Source of the DNA: Candidatus Poribacteria bacterium
GTDB lineage: Bacteria; Poribacteria; WGA-4E; WGA-3G
NCBI GenBank assembly: GCA_965198235.1
Contig: OZ240248.1
Span: 992,001 to 1,056,000, forward strand
Length of the DNA stretch: 64,000 nucleotides
Direction of reading: 5' to 3'
Below the pieces are notes generated by a model. It did not search any database. It saw nothing but the letters and a program-made list of their open reading frames with translations, and was not told the DNA's origin. Shown here piece by piece: positions 631-41,264 of the stretch. The stretch's first letter is position 1; each line of letters begins with the position of its first letter. Both the position numbers and the translations under genes were made by a program.

Positions 631-958
631 TTATTAAGTTTCTGCTCTGCCCTCCACTTCGTTTCGGGCAGGTTTTTGGTCCAGTTCACGCGGGGTTGGT
701 CCTTTCTCGTCTTTAAGGCAGTTGGAATTAACCAGAAGCCGGGACCCCGCCTGTTACTGGAGAGGGGTGCGAAACGCTTTTCTAACGATGGGCCTCTGAG
801 TTGCCCTCCAAATGTAACGCATTCTCGCTACAAAGCAAAATTACGCCATTTAAGGCATAATTTCGTTTCGGGCAGGTTTTCGGTGCAATCCACACGGAGT
901 GGGTTCGCCGAAACCCGCTCGTACTTAACCAGACACCATCGTGAAACGAAGTGGAACG

Positions 959-2065
959 ATGACCAAATGTAACAGTTTAAAATATCAAAATCTCGTTCGT
1001 TCAGACATCGCGGATATGGCACCGTATACGCCGATTGTTCCTTTCGATGTCTTGAGTAAACGCCTTGGTATTCCTGTTGAAGACATCATAAAACTTGATG
1101 CGAACGAGAACCCCTACGGTCCCTCTCCCTCCGTCTATCGAGCACTTGCCAATGAAAAGGATTACCACATATATCCAGACCCGGATAGCACTGCGCTCCG
1201 CCAAGCACTGAGTCGGTACACAGGCATTGATGCAACGCATATCATCGCCGGACAGGGCGCAGATGAACTGATTGATCTTATAGTTCGACTGTTCGTCACC
1301 CCTGGAGACGCGGTTATCAATTGTCCTCCAACATTTGGAATGTACCGTTTCGACACGGAACTTAACGGGGGAAAAATTATTGATGTCGAACGAAAAGCAG
1401 ATTTTTCCTTAGACACTGAATCAATAGTTGAAATTGCCTCCAGTGGCAGAAACGCCAAAATCCTCTTTATCACAAGCCCGAACAATCCTGACGGTAGTGT
1501 CCTCAGTGATGCATGTCTTCGGCAACTGCTTCAATTACCACTAATTGTTGTATTAGATGAAGCCTATATCGAATTCGCCGGGGGCAGCCGTGCAGACTGG
1601 GTTTTAGAACATGAAAATCTGATTGTGCTTCGGACGTTTAGTAAGTGGGCAGGACTTGCAGGGTTGCGGGTAGGCTATGGTGTCTTTCCGCACTGGATAA
1701 TTTCGCACCTGTTGAAGATTAAGCAGCCATACAATGTAAACGTCGCCGGGTCAACCGCGGCATTAGCTTCGCTGTCAGACGTACGTCAACTCCAGGAAAA
1801 TATCAGGAAAATTGTGGAGGAGCGTGAACGACTCTATCCAGCCTTGCGAAATTTTGACTTCTTAGATCCTTATCCGAGTGAGGCGAATTTCATTCTGTCA
1901 AGGGTTGTTGGAAGAGACGCGGCGGGATTGAAAGCGGCGTTAGCTGAGCGAGGCATTCTCATCCGATATTTTAACACACCACGCTTACAAGACCACGTCC
2001 GGATCAGCGTTGGTAAGCCGTCGCAGACATCCGTCCTCCTGGACGCACTCGCAACGTTGGCGTAA
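959..2065 (+). CDS. hisC: Histidinol-phosphate aminotransferase
   Basis: KLDANENPYG, SPNNPDG, DEAYIEF and PLP-lysine motif RTFSKWAGLAGLRVGY; start uncertain (ATG 959 lies inside a repeat hairpin). Confidence 0.92.
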   Translation: MTKCNSLKYQNLVRSDIADMAPYTPIVPFDVLSKRLGIPVEDIIKLDANENPYGPSPSVYRALANEKDYHIYPDPDSTALRQALSRYTGIDATHIIAGQGADELIDLIVRLFVTPGDAVINCPPTFGMYRFDTELNGGKIIDVERKADFSLDTESIVEIASSGRNAKILFITSPNNPDGSVLSDACLRQLLQLPLIVVLDEAYIEFAGGSRADWVLEHENLIVLRTFSKWAGLAGLRVGYGVFPHWIISHLLKIKQPYNVNVAGSTAALASLSDVRQLQENIRKIVEERERLYPALRNFDFLDPYPSEANFILSRVVGRDAAGLKAALAERGILIRYFNTPRLQDHVRISVGKPSQTSVLLDALATLA

Positions 2066-8146: not shown

Positions 8147-9499
8147 ATGCTACTCAATAAAATTGTTCTACGCAACTTCCGTAACTATGTCGATTGCGAA
8201 GTGAGTTTTTCCACGCCTGTCAATCTAATTATTGGCGGGAACGCGCAAGGGAAGACAAGTCTGCTTGAAGCAATTTATTTCCTTTGTACTGCTGAATCGC
8301 ACCGGGCGACTCGCGATGGTGAATTAATTCGGCACAACGAAGCAGGATTTTATCTGAAAGGAATGTTGGGAAACAGTCGTAACGATGTGATGTCGCTTGA
8401 GGCGATGAAGCGGGCGCGTGGGCAGTTTAAACTTAAAAAGAATGGGATGCTTCAAACGAAACGCTCTGAATGGATTGGGCAGTTTAATGCGGTGCTCTTC
8501 TCACCGGAGTCCCTTGTATTGGTGAAGGGCGGACCCGCAGAACGCCGAAGGTTTTTGGACTTGCTCATCTCACAAATCGACAGCACCTACCTAAAAAATT
8601 TGCAGAAATATAAACTGGTTCTCAGGCAACGGAACGAACTTCTTAAACAAATTCGCACGACGTTAGTGGATGCGGTACAGTTAGATGTCTGGGACAAACT
8701 TTTAATTGCCCACGGTACTGCAATTATTATAAAGCGATTGGAAATTTTTCATCAATTAAAAGCCTACGCCATGCAAAATCACCAAAAACTCACTGGTGGT
8801 CAAGAAAACCTCGCATTGACGTATTGTTCCGCGCTGATGCGGAACAATACGTCAATGCATAACACCCATAATACAGAAGATGAAGATACGGAAAATTCAA
8901 TAGGCGAATCAGAGATTGGGTTCCTTGAGACCAAAACCGAAACCGAGATATCAAAGCACTTCAATGCAGCTTTAAATGCATCGCGCGGTGCTGATTTACA
9001 GAGAGGCACAACCCTCGTCGGACCGCATCGCGACGACTTTCTCATCGAACTGGAGAACGCGTTTGGAACATCCAGCCTTGATTCCGACAGCGAAAATCGC
9101 TTGGAAGCCACGGACGCTGAGAAAGAGGAGGTGGACCACAAAGATTCCCAAATTCAAGATCCACTCCCAAAATCCGAAATTGGAACGTTCCGAGAGGGAG
9201 CGCGCGCTTACGGGTCCCAGGGTCAGCAACGGACGATAGCGTTAGCACTTAAACTGGCAGAGTTAGAATTAATCCGAGCTGTGACGGGGCAGGATCCGAT
9301 CGTCCTTCTGGACGACGTCACTTCAGAATTGGATTACAAGCGAACAGAGTATCTATTAAACGTTCTCCAAAATTTGAGTGCGCAAACCTTCATTACTGCG
9401 ACCCACGCTGAACCTCTCGTGCACCACCTCAACCAGCCAAACGTCTTAACAGTAGAAAATGCCCAGATAAACCACGCCCCCGAAACTAATTTTAAATGA
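8147..9499 (+). CDS. recF: DNA replication and repair protein RecF
   Basis: GGNAQGKTSLLEAI, GGPAERRRFLD, GPHRDD, GSQGQQR and LLDDVTSELD. Confidence 0.96.
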   Translation: MLLNKIVLRNFRNYVDCEVSFSTPVNLIIGGNAQGKTSLLEAIYFLCTAESHRATRDGELIRHNEAGFYLKGMLGNSRNDVMSLEAMKRARGQFKLKKNGMLQTKRSEWIGQFNAVLFSPESLVLVKGGPAERRRFLDLLISQIDSTYLKNLQKYKLVLRQRNELLKQIRTTLVDAVQLDVWDKLLIAHGTAIIIKRLEIFHQLKAYAMQNHQKLTGGQENLALTYCSALMRNNTSMHNTHNTEDEDTENSIGESEIGFLETKTETEISKHFNAALNASRGADLQRGTTLVGPHRDDFLIELENAFGTSSLDSDSENRLEATDAEKEEVDHKDSQIQDPLPKSEIGTFREGARAYGSQGQQRTIALALKLAELELIRAVTGQDPIVLLDDVTSELDYKRTEYLLNVLQNLSAQTFITATHAEPLVHHLNQPNVLTVENAQINHAPETNFK

Positions 9500-9700
9500 T
9501 TGGTCCCTGGGCACCGCTTCAAATGTAAAGCAAAGACAAATTATGCCATTTAAGGAAACATAATTTCATTGCGCGGTGGCATCCGGCTAAGTCAAGTGCC
9601 ACCCGAAACCTAAAGCAGGGCATGAATTCACCGAAAACCGTTGCAGAACGAAGTGGAGCAACCCTCAGAAGTCAATAATTTAAAAATTGAAAGACAGAAA

Positions 9701-10207
9701 ATGGACAAAACCCATAACCTACGCTATCTTCTCACTGAACTCATCCGAACACACGACCTTGAGCCTAAGATGCTTGAACAAAAAGTCTTCGCTCTCTGGC
9801 GGGAACACCTTCGGAAACACCTTAGCGTGCCTCTCAGCACAAAAACTGTGCCTGTATCGCTGTCGAATGGTATCCTGAAGATTTACACAGAATATCCTGC
9901 GTACAAAACAGCCTTGTCATTCCATAAACCGAAACTCTTAGCCGACATAAACGCTGAATTAGGGCAACCCATTCTCACCGACCTTCGGATAGAAATACAC
10001 CAAGTTAACACGACAGAACCTCATAAAACTGAAGACCAGCCCTTAAGCCCAGAAACGTCAGAAGAAGATTCCACCACTGGTAACACCTACCAAGTAACAC
10101 CCGAACAGTTAGAAAAAATTGAGCAATCTCTCACAAGCGTGTCTGACCCTCAACTAAAAGAATCTTTGTGGCAATTATTCACTGCGCAAAGCATAGACAA
10201 ACCTTGA
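9701..10207 (+). CDS. dciA: DUF721 / DciA-like helicase-loader protein
   Basis: Lies between recF and gyrB; W...T.PVSLSNGILKI...LL..IN..LG...I pattern of DUF721. Confidence 0.65.
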   Translation: MDKTHNLRYLLTELIRTHDLEPKMLEQKVFALWREHLRKHLSVPLSTKTVPVSLSNGILKIYTEYPAYKTALSFHKPKLLADINAELGQPILTDLRIEIHQVNTTEPHKTEDQPLSPETSEEDSTTGNTYQVTPEQLEKIEQSLTSVSDPQLKESLWQLFTAQSIDKP

Positions 10208-10272
10208 CAATTCCTAATGCTTTAGATTTGGGTTCACCCCACGTGTATTGTGCGAAAAAGTTCATTTTTCCC

Positions 10273-10302
10273 TTGACAAAAAGTGTCAAAAAATGATATA
10301 AT
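10273..10302 (+). promoter_or_regulatory. gyrB promoter with overlapping palindrome
   Basis: TTGACA-N18-TATAAT with extended -10 TG; TTGACA-N5-TGTCAA inverted repeat at 10273-10289. Confidence 0.75.
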
Positions 10303-10436
10303 ATCTTTACCACAAGTAACGTAATTGTAAGGAGGTACACAAGAAATTTTCCTGCGGATAGGTACCAACTCCACTAAAAATTCTCACTACAAAGCAAACC
10401 ATTCCCGTTAGGGTGATTTATAGCGAGGCATCATAA

Positions 10437-22404: not shown

Positions 22405-23385
22405 GTGAAAGCTATTATTAGGACTGGCGATGGCGGACCGGAAGTCCTGCAATTAGGCGAAGCCCCATCACCGAATCCAACAGAAACACAACTCTTGGTG
22501 GATGTCCGTGCCACTGCTTTAAATCGAGCCGACATGATTCAAAGACGGGGTGGATATCCGCCACCGCCAGGTGAATCTGAGGTCCTTGGTTTAGAGATCG
22601 CTGGCACCGTTTCAGCGATGGGCAACGCTGTAAAAGGAATGACGAAAGGGGATCGCGTTTTTGGACTCGTTGGTGGTGGCGGTTATGCGGAACAAGCCGT
22701 CATAGATTACCGCATGGCAATGCCGATGCCTGACGAATGGACTTTTGAACAAGCCGCCGCGGTACCTGAAGTATTTTTTACAGCGAGTGACAACATTTTC
22801 ACCCAGGGCGGATTATCAGCTGGTGAGGCGATTCTGATTCATGCAGGAGGGAGTGGCGTTGGCACTGCTGGTGTCCAAATCTCGCATCATGCCGGTGCCA
22901 AAGTTTTTGTCACTGCGGGGACTTCGGAGAAAATTGAAAATTGCAAGGCACTCGGTGCGACAGAGGGCATCAACTACAAAGAAAGCGACTTCGTTGCCGA
23001 GATTCTACGTTTGACAGATGGACAAGGTGTGGATGTTGTTGTCGACTTTATCGGAGCACCCTATCTTGAACGGAACCTTTCCGTGCTTAAAACAAAGGGT
23101 AGACTTTTACAACTCGGATTAATCAGCGGGTCAGTCACAGAAATTAACCTCAACACAGTAATGCGCAACAGGCTTCAACTGATAGGCTCTGTCCTGCGGA
23201 CTCGATCTATTGACGAAAAAATCGGTGTCACGCAACGCTTTATGGATCGTTGGTTACCCGAGTTGAAGCGCGGCAGAATCCGACCCGTTATTGACACTGT
23301 TTTCCCATTAGCGCAAGCACGGCAAGCGCACGAGTATATGGAAGCAAATCGCAATTTCGGAAAAATTATTTTGAAGGTCTTTTAA
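22405..23385 (+). CDS. NAD(P)H-quinone oxidoreductase, PIG3 family
   Basis: LNRADMIQRRGGYPPPPG, LIHAGGSGVGTA and GKIIL. Confidence 0.92.
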   Translation: MKAIIRTGDGGPEVLQLGEAPSPNPTETQLLVDVRATALNRADMIQRRGGYPPPPGESEVLGLEIAGTVSAMGNAVKGMTKGDRVFGLVGGGGYAEQAVIDYRMAMPMPDEWTFEQAAAVPEVFFTASDNIFTQGGLSAGEAILIHAGGSGVGTAGVQISHHAGAKVFVTAGTSEKIENCKALGATEGINYKESDFVAEILRLTDGQGVDVVVDFIGAPYLERNLSVLKTKGRLLQLGLISGSVTEINLNTVMRNRLQLIGSVLRTRSIDEKIGVTQRFMDRWLPELKRGRIRPVIDTVFPLAQARQAHEYMEANRNFGKIILKVF

Positions 23386-23767
23386 ACTATCGGTCCTCGC
23401 GCTGTGCTCCAAATGTAAAGCAAAGACAAATTATGCCATTTAAGGAAACCTAATTTCATTCCGCATAGGTTTCCGATGAAGGCAGCTGAATAAATTAGAA
23501 ATCTGTCTGAAAGAAATCGGGGTGTTTTTGCTTGGGCGTTTCCCCTCTCACGGTGGAAGGCAGCGCGAAGGCCAAAGAATTAAAAAATATTTTAAAAAGT
23601 GAAGGATATGTCCTTTACATAACACTTATAATACAAGATTTCTTATTCAAAGTATCGGAGAATAGCCATCAGCCATCGGCAATCGGCTTTCAGCGGAATA
23701 GCCATCAGCATTCCCTGACCGCTGACTGCGATCCTCACTGACCGCTGACTGCTGAAAACTATCACAA

Positions 23768-29700: not shown

Positions 29701-30070
29701 TGAGGTTCGCCTAACTGTGAGCGATGTCCATGGGAATACGGATACAAAAGACATCACATTTCGGGTCCATGACACCTTGCAGTTGCTATCGTTTCTCAAC
29801 TATCCGAATCCTTTTCCGCGTAAAACAACGCTCACCTGCGAATTAACAGCACCTGCTGACTCACTCGTTGTGAAAATCTATACGCTGAGTGGACGACTCA
29901 TCCGAGAATTCTCCATCCCAGCAACTCCTGGGTTTCTTATGGTGGAATGGGATGGCAGAGATGCTGATGGAGTTGAGGTTGCAAATGGCGTTTACTATGC
30001 TAAACTCCGAGTCCAGCGCGAGGGTGAAAAGGACGTAACCGAAATACTTAAAATGATGAAACTCCGTTAA
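23768..30070 (+). CDS. Large C25-family (gingipain/PorU-like) cysteine peptidase with propeptide and C-terminal FlgD-Ig sorting domain
   Basis: ADYLIVTH, YVVLFGDG, IGRL, catalytic YAGHG and LSCYNGYFD, LFGDP; C-terminal NYPNPF...WDGRD..G..VANGVYY. Confidence 0.9.
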   Translation: MQLYLKQIGTEHKPVYALFRFGIILGIHVLTFVGGVCNPDSFAEITQTTSTDGITLQFTLPELTISEVIRDNIRYQGVRYADCHFTGEPGNPKVPVTRLMLGIPAAATIEAVDVSAASVETRTGVRLVPVPIFDIHELNSQHSASQHWSESGSAYQLKGNGSFSGNRSYPGHPLARIVREGYIRSQRVIALALYPVQYLPNTRQLRLYSRFTVNIRFSYTKQGGPLTARGSSSQIFPDQGITVPESEVFERAFSHQLFNAEQAARFRAPRPLVPTAPTLIPNGGHGTRYKLFIQETGIYAVTAASLQNDWGVDLIGTHPARFRLTQGNRDVPVYISGAADGSFDPNDAIFFLGHKPKNRYSRWNVYWLSIDNRGRIPTRVPQITVSPTDQTATQVPTFRSKVNFEEDYLTSNLEFVHTETVSPGDKHGWFDALDFWYWDGIKNGGDSAEMRLEFPLYDVAKSFDPPRISVDLQGGTPVSHEILVAINGVRIDFAKWEQQDTLTIGRTLRTWDTLKDNVKGQQNVLSLARVDSNVDEDTTRYPYHVYLNRFSVEYTRLFRAVADELWFRSPTADTTSRERLPGGRKLQYKIEAFREPEIHIFETDGTYLTAQMQGVNVELDAARSNSYNALFQVLDTRSTQFIAVSNAALRQPDRIDVVAPTDLATAVHSADYLIVTHPNFLSAAQRLAAWRTTPGGGGYRTKVVTTDDIYNTFGDGGVSPKAVKAFLKHAYQSWTPPALTYVVLFGDGTFDFRGIDTDIYAEPPELTGYIPTHYIRTDSFGRTASDHWYATVSGHDEFTDFYIGRLSVETVNQADAVADKIIAYEQTPPNGDWRRRIIAVADDEVSNSGDFIFKKSLDEIAKDHTRLGYETVEVFLEDVIDQVEAHPADYPGLLPQRVAKNKIIEALGEGAVLAQYAGHGGRIVWAHEAIFDNASVDQVEETTKIPFMLVLSCYNGYFDKPGEPSMAEKLLRKERGGIIGMLSATRLTYGSGNDALNRIIFDMLFKRNIRQLGPLSFDSKVELLMTEGTGQIDIMMEYTLFGDPALQIAIANGEIQPTIETKTVAPGDTLRIASGHVQTATYDAASRTKRFVTNTTFNGTLSVKALFPGKTATAQGVAGPVKYYTGDVILTKTLAVNRGAYPAVTFSVPKNIASGDAHVEYYAQSNATVAVGGDGFTVNIPKILDIKPELVGEGKFRISVQVSDEKEQLFLVLLDWRNPESREWEKVRFVPAEPPLSEDGWWTVPEPLNAPIDGSPIRYNLQVTDIDNNTVTSERLQYYPYVYPNLSIVEVDRTNRIGYGYNTKTEQWYLSADVQIEGESIKMPIEVAFFSGNPDVDDDTLVDDDVNLLGTTRIQPKDWVPRTPLADSSTGKDVYEPDPLNTLPIATATLNLPSEYNGGQLPLGTHDIFVYIDVTETEADQPGNVLENDEEDNISYRRLFVDMGVVGTVDRRTRIASLDRNCVITVPPGGFRETTVLAIRSLDERKFAAIETGSLDTSTRSSPKRMSKQAPLPGVVTHGYEIVIGDQLSAVSDKNLLTENREPRTDNSIKLTSPVAIDLSFDIGALRTQLTRELLGGMESEETPLEEEPNELGVADTINTAVASRARELGIYMFNSTLGNWTRLPSQQLTDATGALQQHTHVTNVSQENVGESALRDVGIQPEGARPGKYVLFFTGPQTYRLFLAPSVDDTRAGNTQAKTPLEVIASAEQLANFSTDIPNFRHGFSLNVELNFEKPLTFGDVLTFNITSLIQSVDVETDLDTPQQEQRWYASGFRDTNQGTGTVSYIELLPDTAMPEDKWIIFFLTDSLFQVEGERTGILRSQTDGNQPLRGTVEEPFSYKPYGLRLQLTQGERSFAPGDRFRFQTRSVGTIRATTDRLGPITLLYTDDTVPPDIQLTIGNQQHFVPGDATDAEPLIGATLTDPSGLDYLTRPLLLEIGDAFGEYERIDPEAYQVTYYPGSNQLVLTYPSPELEPREYEVRLTVSDVHGNTDTKDITFRVHDTLQLLSFLNYPNPFPRKTTLTCELTAPADSLVVKIYTLSGRLIREFSIPATPGFLMVEWDGRDADGVEVANGVYYAKLRVQREGEKDVTEILKMMKLR

Positions 30071-30230
30071 TAGTTTTTAAATGATCAGCCCTCGCGCATC
30101 GTTCCACTACGTTTCACGATGGTTTTTGGTCAGTTCCAGCTGGGTTAGAAGCATGGGAAAGGGTCTGAACACATCGGAAACCACCGTGTAATGAAATGGA
30201 GCGGTGCCTAGGTGTTAATCATTAAAAAAA

Positions 30231-31337
30231 ATGAAACATCTTAAAAAAAATATCTTCTATTTTACTGTGTGTATAATTACATTTTGTGTGGTAACTCTCC
30301 AATCTGTTGATGCGAGATACACTGCTGATTTCCTAACACTTGGGGTTGGAGCCCGCGCACTTGCTATGGGAGGTGCAGGGACTGCTCTAAGTGACAATGC
30401 TTACGCACCCTATTGGAATCCTGCTGGATTGGGACAACTCACTCGGTATGAAGTCAGCTTCATGCACTCCACACTCAATGGAGAGGATGCCTACGATTTT
30501 GTTAGTTTTGTCGTGCCGCTTGCAAACGACAACTTGCCAGACAAAAAACATCCACTAAAAAAGCGAGGGGCAATCGGGATCAGCTGGCTCCGTGTCGGTG
30601 TTGACGATATACCTATTACCAGTCTACCCGTGGTCAGCCGCCCTGTCGGACCCACAAACCGTCCGGAGGTAGTCGGGTCTTTTAACAATACGGATAACGC
30701 CTTTCTCTTTGCTCACGGCTGGAGACTACCAGCTTTTCGTGGTATTAATTTACGACTTGGTGGAACGCTCAAACTTCTCTACATGAGCGGATATCGAAGT
30801 ACAAACGCCATCGGCGGCGGTGCCGATATGGGTCTCGTCGCAATGACAAACCCAGAAAAGCCTCATCAACTCATGCTCGGACTACAGGCGAGCGATGTCT
30901 TCACGACGAAACTCTATTGGAATACACCACCTCCATCGGCGGAGCAGACATCGCACACCGAAACGATACTGCCACAGCTCAAAATTGGGGTTGCTACGAT
31001 ACACACGCTCCCTATCTTCCGAAGCACACTCATCCTCGCACTGGATACCTACATCCAAAATCGGGGTGGTTCACGGGCTAAATCTGATGTCGAGGCACCA
31101 CAAGGGAGTCCTGTTGAGTTGCATGCGGGTGCCGAATGGACGCTCTTCGACCTGCTTGCCTTACGGGTTGGAATGGCGGAGCGTAGTGGGAGCCTTGAGA
31201 GTGTTCGCCAATTAACAGCGGGGGTTGGATTGAACCTCCGATTCGTCACAGGAGCAGGTGCGGGGTTAGACTATGCATTTGCAAACCATCCAGCATTAGG
31301 TGGCAGCCATCGCATATCCCTCAGAATTAGGTTCTAA
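30231..31337 (+). CDS. PorV/PorQ-family outer-membrane beta-barrel protein
   Basis: Signal peptide, FLTLGVGARALAMGGA, YWNPAGL and C-terminal DYAF...LGGSHRISLRIRF. Confidence 0.85.
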   Translation: MKHLKKNIFYFTVCIITFCVVTLQSVDARYTADFLTLGVGARALAMGGAGTALSDNAYAPYWNPAGLGQLTRYEVSFMHSTLNGEDAYDFVSFVVPLANDNLPDKKHPLKKRGAIGISWLRVGVDDIPITSLPVVSRPVGPTNRPEVVGSFNNTDNAFLFAHGWRLPAFRGINLRLGGTLKLLYMSGYRSTNAIGGGADMGLVAMTNPEKPHQLMLGLQASDVFTTKLYWNTPPPSAEQTSHTETILPQLKIGVATIHTLPIFRSTLILALDTYIQNRGGSRAKSDVEAPQGSPVELHAGAEWTLFDLLALRVGMAERSGSLESVRQLTAGVGLNLRFVTGAGAGLDYAFANHPALGGSHRISLRIRF

Positions 31338-37832: not shown

Positions 37833-38041
37833 TTTTTAAATTTTTTAACTATGGGCTCTTGAGCTGTGCTCCATTACATTCCGCACAGGTTTTCGGTTAA
37901 CTCGAGAGCCTGCTTTAGGTGCGGAGAGGTTCCTGACTTTACCAGAAATCATCGTGGAATGAAATTAGGTTTCCTTAAATGGCATAATTTGTCTTTGCTT
38001 TACATTTGGAACGATGCCCAAGAGCAAATAGTTAAAAATTC

Positions 38042-39736: not shown

Positions 39737-41183
39737 TGAAGAGGAAATCTTGTTGGACAGTAAGTTACGTTTTTTAATTGACGATGGGGCAGCGGGTTCG
39801 TTCCCACAGGCAGTGCAACAGAAAATTGATACCGCTTTGCCAAGGATTCACCTTCTATTTCAGGATGAAACAGAAGCACCGCTTGCCAAGTTGGAGAGTG
39901 GGCTTCGTGCGTGGACCCGCAGCCATCTCCAGACCGAGGATATTGCCCAAGTCGCGGCGTTAGCCACACGCGCACGTGAAGCGTTTTCGGTGTTGGTCAC
40001 CATTGGTGTAGGTGGTTCCGATCTGAGTGCCCGCGTCTTTCACGATTTCTTCAACCATCCCTATCATAACTTGCTGTCGGTTGAAGAACGCGGCGGTGCT
40101 CCCGAAGTCTATTTCACAGGCGATACCTTCGATCCACGCAAGCTTACCGGCTTACTTGAAATGCTCAAAGCGAGGAACCTCCTTGATAAGACGCTTTTCA
40201 ACGTTATTAGTAAATCCGGAACAACAACCGAAACTATGGCGACGTTGATGATTATCCGTGATGCGCTTGATGATGTAAACTGGCGGCAACAGGTCCTCGC
40301 CACTACCGGCTTAACCCCCGACAGTGTGCTCTTCCGAATGCATGAGCAATCACCTTTCTACGGGAATACACTGCTTCCTGTTCCTGATGGGGTTGGTGGA
40401 CGATTTTCAGCTTTCTCTCCAGTCGGGTTGTTCTTTCTTGCTATGACAGCAGGAAAGGACGAAACGCCCGATACCCGAATTCGTGCCGCTGTCGAGGGTG
40501 TGAATCAGGCTCACGAAGGCTTTAATCTCGCTTATAATCATCAGGATAACATTGCCTATCGATTGGCGCGATGGATTCATCTCTCTGAAGAAGTTAACGG
40601 AACCAAACACCCAAGTAGAAACACTATTGTTTTTTATAACTACGCTGACAGTAGTTGCCTCGGTGAATGGTTCGTCCAACTTTATACAGAATCTATTCAG
40701 GAGCGCGGCGGTGGTGCTAATGTCATAAATGCGAAGGGACCCACGAGCAATCATTCTATTCTCAACGGTATTATCGCCGGTCCCAGAGATAAAGTCGTTT
40801 TATTTATTCATTGGGAGGGACTTGGTCCCGATTTAGTACTGCCGAAAAAGACTGGAATGGATAGCAAATTAACCGAGTTTGAAGGTTTATCCATGACGCA
40901 CATGCAGACTGCTTCGTATCGTGGGACTGCTTTAGATTTTAGTGAGAACGGTGTCCCCAATGCAACGCTAACCCTTCCGAAGCGGGATATTCAGTCTGTT
41001 TGCCAGTTGATGCGTCTCTTAATGGACACTATTGCCGTAAAAGGCAGGCTCCAGGGGTTACATCTTGACAATAATGGCGGGAGTGAGTTAACATACCTGC
41101 AAGATGGTGTTGAAGGCTATAAACGGAATTTTAAACGGTTGGCCTCTGCTCCTTGCTCCACTACGTTTCGCAAGGGCACTTGA
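39723..41183 (+). CDS. pgi: Glucose-6-phosphate isomerase
   Basis: IGVGGSDL, VISKSGTTTET, VGGRFS and Q.GVEGYK; last codons come from a repeat element; start approximate. Confidence 0.85.
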   Translation: MAGFSEEEILLDSKLRFLIDDGAAGSFPQAVQQKIDTALPRIHLLFQDETEAPLAKLESGLRAWTRSHLQTEDIAQVAALATRAREAFSVLVTIGVGGSDLSARVFHDFFNHPYHNLLSVEERGGAPEVYFTGDTFDPRKLTGLLEMLKARNLLDKTLFNVISKSGTTTETMATLMIIRDALDDVNWRQQVLATTGLTPDSVLFRMHEQSPFYGNTLLPVPDGVGGRFSAFSPVGLFFLAMTAGKDETPDTRIRAAVEGVNQAHEGFNLAYNHQDNIAYRLARWIHLSEEVNGTKHPSRNTIVFYNYADSSCLGEWFVQLYTESIQERGGGANVINAKGPTSNHSILNGIIAGPRDKVVLFIHWEGLGPDLVLPKKTGMDSKLTEFEGLSMTHMQTASYRGTALDFSENGVPNATLTLPKRDIQSVCQLMRLLMDTIAVKGRLQGLHLDNNGGSELTYLQDGVEGYKRNFKRLASAPCSTTFRKGT

Positions 41184-41264
41184 CGCGCATCAGAAACCCT
41201 CGTGAAACGAAGTGGAACGAGGCGCGAAGGTTGAACATTAGAAATTTTGCAAGTTGTGCGAAAA

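Follow-up and report, generated by a model that had tools for sequence, protein, structure and literature searches.

How has one short sequence come to occupy the same position in the loops of hairpins with different stems? This question is raised by the spacer between recF and a DciA-family gene in a 64,000-nucleotide (nt) stretch of a Candidatus Poribacteria genome (contig OZ240248.1, positions 992,001 to 1,056,000), hereafter called the window, whose coordinates are counted from its first base. In this spacer, the hairpin of an intergenic repeat carries a 42-nt sequence in its loop, subsequently designated the cassette, and the same sequence recurs in other hairpins of the window. The evidence presented below makes it probable that the cassette is a secondary module, which spreads separately from the repeats that harbor it.

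Results

The cassette occupies one loop position in one orientation

Exact matches to the 42-mer, which has C or A at position 39, were found at 9522-9563 and 23412-23453 on the plus strand and at 37965-38006 on the minus strand (mismatches = 0), compared to a chance expectation of 0.00 in 100 shuffles. At each site, stem, TCCA (TTCA at 9518), cassette, TTTCATT and complementary stem follow in this order. The 6-bp host stems differ per copy, i.e. they read CACCGC, CTGTGC and CATCGT, and a fourth stem, TTGCCC/GGGCAG, encloses a 50-nt variant at 811-860. A fragment of this variant, ATTCTCACTACAAAGCAAA, lies at 10380-10398 in the leader of gyrB, with a one-mismatch copy at 821-839 (expectation 0.01). 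The three 42-mers differing by at most one base, the 50-nt variant, the four dissimilar stems and the fragment near 10380 had been listed in an initial annotation of the window, and all were recovered.

To the genome containing the window (G000; 5.12 Mb plus a 44-kb contig, 5.17 Mb altogether, 48% G+C, 96.3% complete) the same picture applies. Collection of all copies with their flanks yielded 87 complete cassette motifs, 84 of which lie between T[CT]CA and TTTC[AG]T, leaving three in other contexts. The flanking 6-mers pair at ≥5 of 6 positions in 78 of the 84 loop-borne cassettes, and the orientation relative to the loop is identical throughout. Thus, the single site and single orientation proposed from the window extend to the genome, and copies outside this loop are the exception.

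The host is a unit of ~70 nt, consisting of the outer end TTTTTAA, a hairpin and then GGTTTCTGGT, which is present in about 400 copies in G000; a profile search started from 78 seed copies returned 386 matches, 312 of them full length. Parsing by loop length separated empty units with a 13-nt loop (266 units) and units with a minimal loop of 3 nt (13 units) from filled ones, whose loops measure 52 nt (21 units; isoform B, a 39-nt cassette), 55 nt (28 units; isoform A, the 42-nt cassette), 66 nt (13 units; isoform C with an extra short segment) or 92 nt (eight units; isoform D with a further hairpin nested in the extra segment). About 100 entries of the inventory fell into a class "other", many of them mis-parsed or carrying other modules, and were counted neither as empty nor as filled.

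Junction between cassette and loop

Empty loops consist of TCCA, three variable bases, C(A/G)TT and two more bases (TCCA-NNN-CRTTNC; 266 units). Positions 5 and 9 covary, being C/G in 167, T/A in 90 and other combinations in nine units, which suggests a small apical extension of the stem. In filled loops, TTT always precedes C(A/G)TT, including the 25 of 84 cases with G at position 9. This constancy of TTT argues that the cassette replaces the three apical bases, or that its own terminal TTT overlaps them. The initial annotation had placed a clean insertion between loop positions 4 and 5: the flanks TCCA and TTTC are real, but three apical bases appear to be replaced or overlapped in the process. 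It had also noted no obvious target duplication, and none is visible. Of note, bases 1-7 of the cassette are the reverse complement of the loop type TTACATT, which hints that the cassette first arose inside such a loop.

Apparent independence of the cassette from its host hairpins

Among 48 units of the A and B types the first 34 cassette bases share a mean pairwise identity of 94%, in contrast to their flanks and stems, for which this value is 54-57%. Filled and empty units have at least 15 stem classes in common, and the centre modules of filled units are diverse and also found in empty ones, so that filled hairpins do not form a single clade. The cassette is moreover present in unrelated hosts. 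A second, different host hairpin is empty at G000 position 2835034 and filled at 3766291, and a further cassette lies in a spacer at 988280. In genomes G017 and G053, most cassettes reside in a different composite repeat, and in G017 they are additionally found in repetitive extragenic palindromes (REPs) flanking a Y1 transposase gene. Together with the differing states of orthologous sites described below, these data support the earlier view of a cassette that postdates the hairpins and has been gained repeatedly, at a specific site and in a specific orientation.

Nesting is not restricted to the cassette. Small extra inserts are present in the apical loop of the cassette's own hairpin (L177, L189), and a different mini-hairpin module occupies unit loops alone at G000 positions 3656659 and 3657811. 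Therefore, apex-in-apex nesting is a general pattern in this system.

Several related arrangements were observed on contig C1 of G000. A second type of small insert (AAAGAAAC.CCCAAGCAAAAAC) breaks the 5' stem arm of some units (positions 1573488, 2213294, 1476461 and others). Further modules occupying loops are a CCCC...GGGG mini-hairpin and a GCGCAAGCC...GGCTTGCG hairpin. At positions 3152792, 971549, 1565034 and 1918704, a unit ends abruptly, either inside its loop or shortly past it, and the outer end of a second unit follows directly, which suggests that whole units may also insert into loops.

In the cassette itself, a 16-nt tail (AATGTAAAGCAAAGAC), which is invariant, precedes a hairpin of ~10 bp with a covarying stem. 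Its isoforms differ in size, B having 39 nt, A 42 nt, C 53 nt and D ~79 nt, and further mini-hairpins are nested in the longer ones. Covariation was assessed in an alignment of 22 sequences from three genomes, comprising 19 of 28 distinct stretches retrieved from G017, G053 and G000 by the 21-mer that starts with the tail, two window copies and one copy from L005; L177, L189:1501, L194 and L199 were left out for their extra inserts and L180, L188, L190, L196 and L201 as near-duplicates. In the inner helix, 97.7% of cells are paired. One helix pair, 22-40, is represented by UA (9), GC (5), AU (4) and CG (1), and another by GC (19) and AU (2). The covariation score amounted to 0.170 versus 0.045 for shuffled alignments, with none of 500 shuffles reaching 0.170, and sliding the partners against each other destroyed pairing. 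No variation is seen in columns 1-21, which comprise the tail plus the start of the helix; rows, however, had been chosen by exactly this 21-mer. With its fixed short sequence next to a hairpin, the cassette resembles a REP in its build. Three other identities were considered and dropped: an ATG...TAA frame seen by eye in isoform A is absent from isoform E, a sigma-54 site, likewise read by eye only, has the wrong spacing, and a CRISPR (clustered regularly interspaced short palindromic repeats) repeat, also a reading by eye only, lacks arrays with spacers, the cluster in G017 being a tandem duplication.

Orthologous sites differ in cassette content

An exact 34-mer of the cassette is present in at least 99 stretches of public genomes; among the 80 matches listed, 28 assemblies are represented, 27 of which are Candidatus or uncultured Poribacteria. 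When cassette sites of other Poribacteria were traced to G000, 64 of 83 had both flanks syntenic. Six of these sites, corresponding to five G000 loci, carry isoform B elsewhere and an empty loop in G000, with scores of ≥24 for both flank alignments. Five loci are filled in both genomes, and four of them hold different isoforms (L076, L032, L065, L073); at L076, the aligned flanks beside the cassette are nearly identical despite the different isoforms.

The recF-dciA element is an inverted pair of units, in which the left arm is filled and the right arm (about 9627-9686) is empty. In G013, the same element with the same left stem occupies this spacer and lacks the cassette. Truncated remnants are present in G029 and G021, and the other twelve genomes of the genus that were examined have a short spacer without the element. 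The right arm shows a compensated double change between G000 and G013 (L108, L114), namely GTTGC/GCAAC versus GGTGC/GCACC, and unit stems thus appear either to evolve in place with compensation or to undergo conversion. A solo unit followed across 30 genomes of the genus was absent from 13, empty in 11, filled with isoform B in five and with another mini-hairpin in one (G029). Here, the close sisters G035 and G029 differ solely in the loop. Comparison of orthologous loci, which the initial annotation had named as a check, hence revealed empty loops, isoform A or B, or a different mini-hairpin in sister species.

The distribution was recorded with the tail 21-mer, allowing one mismatch, in 27 genomes of the genus including G000 and in 34 genomes from five other genera. 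The 21-mer is present in G000 and in 25 of the 26 other genus genomes (0-62 copies, with the maximum in G000), and in two of the 34 genomes of other genera (1-2 copies). Of the 27 genus genomes, 25 hold the empty-loop motif in numbers greatly exceeding the control; elsewhere, the motif stays close to background. Cassette and empty-loop numbers vary between genomes as follows:

G077: 0 cassettes, 91 empty loops
G013: 12 cassettes, 259 empty loops
G000: 62 cassettes (tail 21-mer count), 397 empty loops (motif count)
G017: 41 cassettes, 7 empty loops
G053: 25 cassettes, 9 empty loops

A one-base variant, GCTAAG, predominates in G010 (8 of 9) and is frequent in G058 (7 of 15), being the predominant form there as well. 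Homogeneity within genomes combined with differences between them points to ongoing spread or conversion, which we favor over static constraint.

The host family and its members in the window

Among 411 units kept, 86 convergent pairs are less than 400 nt long, with modes at ~170 nt (both arms empty) and ~210 nt (one arm filled). No pair of the 86 has both arms filled, versus only ~3-4 expected, hence this zero is uninformative. Stems differ between the two arms of one pair. The host element displays the terminal inverted repeats, small size and lack of coding capacity typical of MITEs (miniature inverted-repeat transposable elements). Its ends read TTTTTAA ... TTAAAAA. A duplication of the TTAA type may occur, the comparison having involved filled and empty sites that were too diverged or had a different spacer allele. 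In G000, no parent element with the same ends was detected, since no repeated inner segment is common to the 27 unit pairs with a spacing of 600-5000 nt. We therefore regard the host as a family similar to MITEs or to REPINs (REP doublets forming hairpins). Cassettes number 31 on the plus and 53 on the minus strand of G000, and empty loops 140 and 122, respectively; cumulative GC skew is too weak and irregular to assign replichores, and these strand counts support no conclusion.

In the window, family members are located at 616-990, 9490-9686, 30067-30236, 37834-38040 and 41121-41252. Their loop TCCA-NNN-CRTTNC is conserved, their 6-bp stems are hypervariable and compensated, and they mostly form inverted pairs of ~170 nt set against start or stop codons. 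The individual features are:

780-880, plus strand: unit holding at 811-860 the 50-nt variant, which is of the isoform C type and has TTCTCGCTACAAAGC as its extra segment; stems TTGCCC 801-806 and GGGCAG 870-875
925-990, minus strand: empty-loop partner, inverted relative to the unit at 780-880; CATCGT/ACGATG stem around GAAACGAAGTGGA
9490-9585, plus strand: left repeat unit of the recF-dciA spacer element; outer end TTTTAAATGATTGG; stem CACCGC 9512-9517, TTCA 9518-9521, cassette 9522-9563, TTTCATTGC 9564-9572, GCGGTG 9573-9578
9522-9563, plus strand: cassette isoform A with A at position 39, exact match; 16-nt tail AATGTAAAGCAAAGAC, then the inner hairpin region
9627-9686, minus strand: right unit of the recF-dciA element, inverted, without cassette; outer end TTTAAAAA; stem GTTGC/GCAAC around the 13-nt loop 9645-9657
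10380-10398, plus strand: free-standing short TTCTCAC...AAGCAAA motif (the extra segment of isoform C) in the gyrB leader
23380-23480, plus strand: unit with isoform A at 23412-23453; stems CTGTGC 23402-23407 and GCATAG 23463-23468
30067-30236, no strand assigned: inverted unit pair of 170 nt for comparison, both loops empty (G000 position 1022067)
37834-37904, plus strand: empty-loop partner (TCCATTACATTCC), convergent with the unit at 37946-38040 in an inverted pair of ~213 nt (G000 position 1029834)
37946-38040, minus strand: unit with isoform A at 37965-38006; stems CATCGT 38011-38016 and ACGATG 37950-37955

The genes beside the window copies are ordinary housekeeping genes, including recF, the DciA-family gene, gyrB, an aminotransferase gene and NamZ, and no transposase is among the genes flanking window cassettes. 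The host elements border on stop codons and, when the opposite strand is considered, on start codons. Upstream of gyrB, a near-consensus sigma-70 promoter was recognized by eye (TTGACA, 17 nt, TATAAT; 10264-10305), followed by the free-standing TTCTCAC...AAGCAAA motif.

Explanations other than a spreading module

The direction of change could be the reverse: the long form may be ancestral, with empty loops arising as replication repeatedly slipped across the base of the apical hairpin and removed it precisely, and the cassette kept uniform by serving the cell, for instance as a protein-binding site. Hairpin tips are prone to deletion, and the 13 units with a 3-nt loop show that loop loss does happen. 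An origin inside a TTACATT loop, as read from bases 1-7, would also agree with this history, and so would the precedent of the Neisseria Correia elements, whose long and short isoforms are described as differing by an internal segment of ~50 bp (PMC2229807). We nevertheless consider it unlikely. The cassette is also found in host hairpins without a TCCA/TTTCATT loop, and isoforms A and B are swapped at orthologous sites with identical flanks. Simple deletion cannot yield the commonest empty loops, since CTTCG and CTACG require an extra base change. The species-specific predominant variants resemble concerted spread rather than static constraint, and the orientation of the cassette is unbiased relative to neighboring genes.

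Alternatively, the cassette could be a cis-acting expression signal, i.e. a promoter, terminator or RNA motif kept by selection, in which case its distribution would reflect function instead of mobility. Two window copies contain on the antisense strand a sigma-70-like extended -10 match (ATGAAA, 18 nt, CATAAT after TG; 9/12), and the covarying inner hairpin would suit an RNA motif. In a sponge RNA library, contigs that cover the upstream gene reach into the cassette at 23434, but such libraries may hold DNA. One such library covers the recF-dciA spacer (share 0.96), where contigs break at repeats and multi-copy mapping inflates depth. In general, these contigs reveal no RNA ends, strand or level, DNA carry-over is possible, and uncovered parts are no evidence. 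Against a signal of this kind stands the lack of an orientation rule, as 46 of 84 filled and 133 of 262 empty units point their outer end towards a gene start. A terminator-like site was not found, and Rfam 15 gave no match at gathering scores in the 64-kb window; within 9400-9750, where hits up to E = 10 were inspected, only chance-level ones were obtained (E 1.3 and 9). Moreover, the orthologous genes of sister species manage without the cassette. Selection for an expression signal is thus improbable as an explanation.

Finally, the initial annotation had suggested a scar or miniature of an IS110/IS1111-type or retro-type element targeting the loop, an idea to which the site- and orientation-specific insertion into a repeat hairpin without target duplication and the known targeting of REP sequences by IS1111/IS110 elements lend some appeal, but which is very hard to maintain given that G000 contains no match to the IS110 (DEDD transposase) domains PF01548 and PF02371 or to the reverse transcriptase domain RVT_1, that no cassette is split by a longer insert (the distance from 5' to 3' end is 21, 32 or 58-64 nt in 87 of 87 G000 copies), that the 27 widely spaced unit pairs have no inner segment in common, and that a scan of viral contigs for a carrier gave a single chance 21-mer match inside a coding region.

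Candidate Y1 transposases and the proposed mode of spread

We are thus left with the separately spreading module as the preferred explanation. The module would be copied into exposed hairpin apexes, whereby three apical bases are replaced, and at a given site it could later be lost or swapped for another isoform or another mini-hairpin, giving rise to nested hairpin-in-loop repeats. Two routes can be envisaged. In the first, a trans-acting protein recognizes tail and hairpin on single-stranded DNA; in the second, the module is transferred without an enzyme by template switching from one hairpin apex to another as DNA is replicated. A protein specific for both sequence and structure of single-stranded DNA would be expected to maintain such a combination of invariant tail and covarying hairpin, and we therefore slightly favor the protein route, holding it somewhat likelier than an even chance; template switching falls a little short of one.

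The only enzyme candidates seen are IS200/RAYT-like Y1 transposases of the HUH type (RAYT, REP-associated tyrosine transposase), and the mechanism itself we infer. A search of 41 genomes of the genus detected Y1_Tnp genes in every one of them. Inverted REPs enclose three of the Y1 genes in G000 and one in G017, and these REPs share the design of the cassette, namely a variable hairpin with a fixed tail. In G017, four cassettes are located just downstream of the Y1 gene, inside the REPs of that gene and within a tandem duplication. When compared to the RAYT model NF047646 (REP_Tyr_transpos), the Y1 proteins scored 26-37 bits, below the cut-off of 80, and with NF033573 (IS200 TnpA) they reached 72-140 bits, above the cut-off of 55.

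The REP-flanked IS200-like genes are L103, L104 and L105 (G000 contig C1, positions 3853757, 606918 and 1898775) and L179 in G017. Their REPs combine a variable 5-bp hairpin with the tail TATGTCTATAGAAA, and the whole resembles the arrangement at RAYT genes. L104 additionally contains a 121-nt tandem array (242-nt spans at 121-nt steps, 1822-2547). In L179, the duplicated segment at 1240-2200 holds the Y1 gene's 3' end together with two REPs, one intact and one in which a cassette replaces the 5' arm, and the duplication yields four cassette copies in 640 nt. Two further elements on contig C1 of G000 were recorded. The IS200/IS605 element L100 (118338-121691) comprises tnpA, of 139 aa, as well as a 370-aa gene of the TnpB family, and an intact empty hairpin of the same loop family lies ~250 nt past the end of tnpB. 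L107 (3764728-3765932), judged from its first residues only, is an IS3-type transposase with two open reading frames; it lies ~300 nt from a free-standing cassette at 3766248, which is probably coincidence.

Several observations weigh against a spreading module, in particular one moved by a Y1 enzyme. None of the six Y1 genes of G000 has a cassette at a distance of 1.5 kb or less. Y1 classes do not follow cassette number and Y1 co-occurrence discriminates no genomes; G029, for instance, has 19 cassettes, yet its best Y1 match scores 63 bits and contains a stop. The bases 5' of the cassette vary among hosts (CA, GA, TC, AG and others), which does not fit the fixed target tetranucleotide of IS200/IS605 elements. 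The cassette has one hairpin rather than two ends, and replacement of three loop bases is atypical for a transposase. Isoform A alone folds no better than shuffles: folded as DNA, two of the three window copies gave z values of -0.06 and -1.22, and the copy at 23412, folded as RNA, gave +0.45. As to recurrence, the states of the solo unit are scattered on a tree of its 1.8-kb flanks in the 30 genomes, as is a wholly different spacer allele. Recombination between lineages could hence explain part of the apparent recurrence and, being evident at this traced locus, makes the number of independent events uncountable. The missing linkage to Y1 genes, the lack of tracking between Y1 and copy number, the unfixed 5' flank and the three replaced bases fit template switching at least as well.

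A bolder proposal, which we regard as rather unlikely, is that the cassette represents the first hairpin-in-loop homing mini-element, i.e. a single-strand DNA unit of ~40 nt made of tail and hairpin and moved in trans by a domesticated Y1/HUH enzyme. If true, such a homing mini-element would integrate at the apexes of other repeats, and serial insertions would nest repeats within each other and remodel the gene spacers of Poribacteria.

Discussion

Small mosaic repeats, among them REPs, bacterial interspersed mosaic elements (BIMEs) and MITEs, are common in bacteria. The system described here offers many natural before/after pairs in close genomes, namely an empty loop, two isoforms and another mini-hairpin, which render the assembly step testable. 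If driven by a protein, it would add a very small substrate and an unusual target, the hairpin apex, to single-strand DNA transposition; if protein-free, it would be a clear example of template switching that shapes repeat families. In either case, the repeats abut start and stop codons of housekeeping genes (recF, dciA, gyrB and others), and in this uncultivated symbiont of sponges, untranslated regions therefore change with the turnover of the repeats.

Literature searches on Poribacteria repeats and MITEs, covering main texts without supplementary files, returned no published description of these repeats. As far as the descriptions drawn upon here go, the combination of a tail-plus-hairpin module, apical nesting, several hosts and turnover at orthologous sites is absent from the closest systems considered. 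The Correia elements of Neisseria, also known as NEMIS (Neisseria miniature insertion sequences), are small intergenic inverted repeats with forms of ~107 bp and ~155 bp, i.e. with an internal difference of ~50 bp (PMC2229807). As in the host element here, two forms are set apart by an internal segment. Unlike this segment, as far as it is described there, the cassette is a self-contained tail plus hairpin, is located at the apex, has nested isoforms, occupies several unrelated hosts and differs in state between orthologs.

With REP/REPIN-RAYT systems, as portrayed in the accounts consulted, the Poribacteria repeats share a fixed short sequence beside a hairpin, inverted doublets in spacers and hundreds of copies. 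The REP-flanked Y1 (HUH) gene known from RAYTs has its counterpart as well, here for other REPs at three genes of G000 and one of G017. In contrast to REPINs, the cassette was not found as inverted doublets, nor beside a Y1 gene in G000, and the Y1 proteins differ from RAYTs by remaining below the RAYT cut-off while exceeding that of IS200 TnpA. Moreover, the host units reverse the situation of classical REPs, as their stems are hypervariable and their loop is conserved.

Palindrome-associated transposable elements (PATEs) derived from IS200/IS605 have single-strand hairpin ends and insert in an orientation-specific manner without target duplication. The cassette differs from them by its single hairpin, its variable 5' flank without a fixed target tetranucleotide and the replacement of three loop bases. 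When IS1111/IS110 elements insert into REP hairpins, their target is likewise a repeat hairpin, used precisely and in one orientation; unlike in that case, neither such a transposase gene nor a long form was found in G000. Finally, enterobacterial BIMEs are intergenic mosaics of few short motifs in fixed relative orientations. Whereas the modules of BIMEs lie side by side, those of Poribacteria are nested at the apexes of hairpins.

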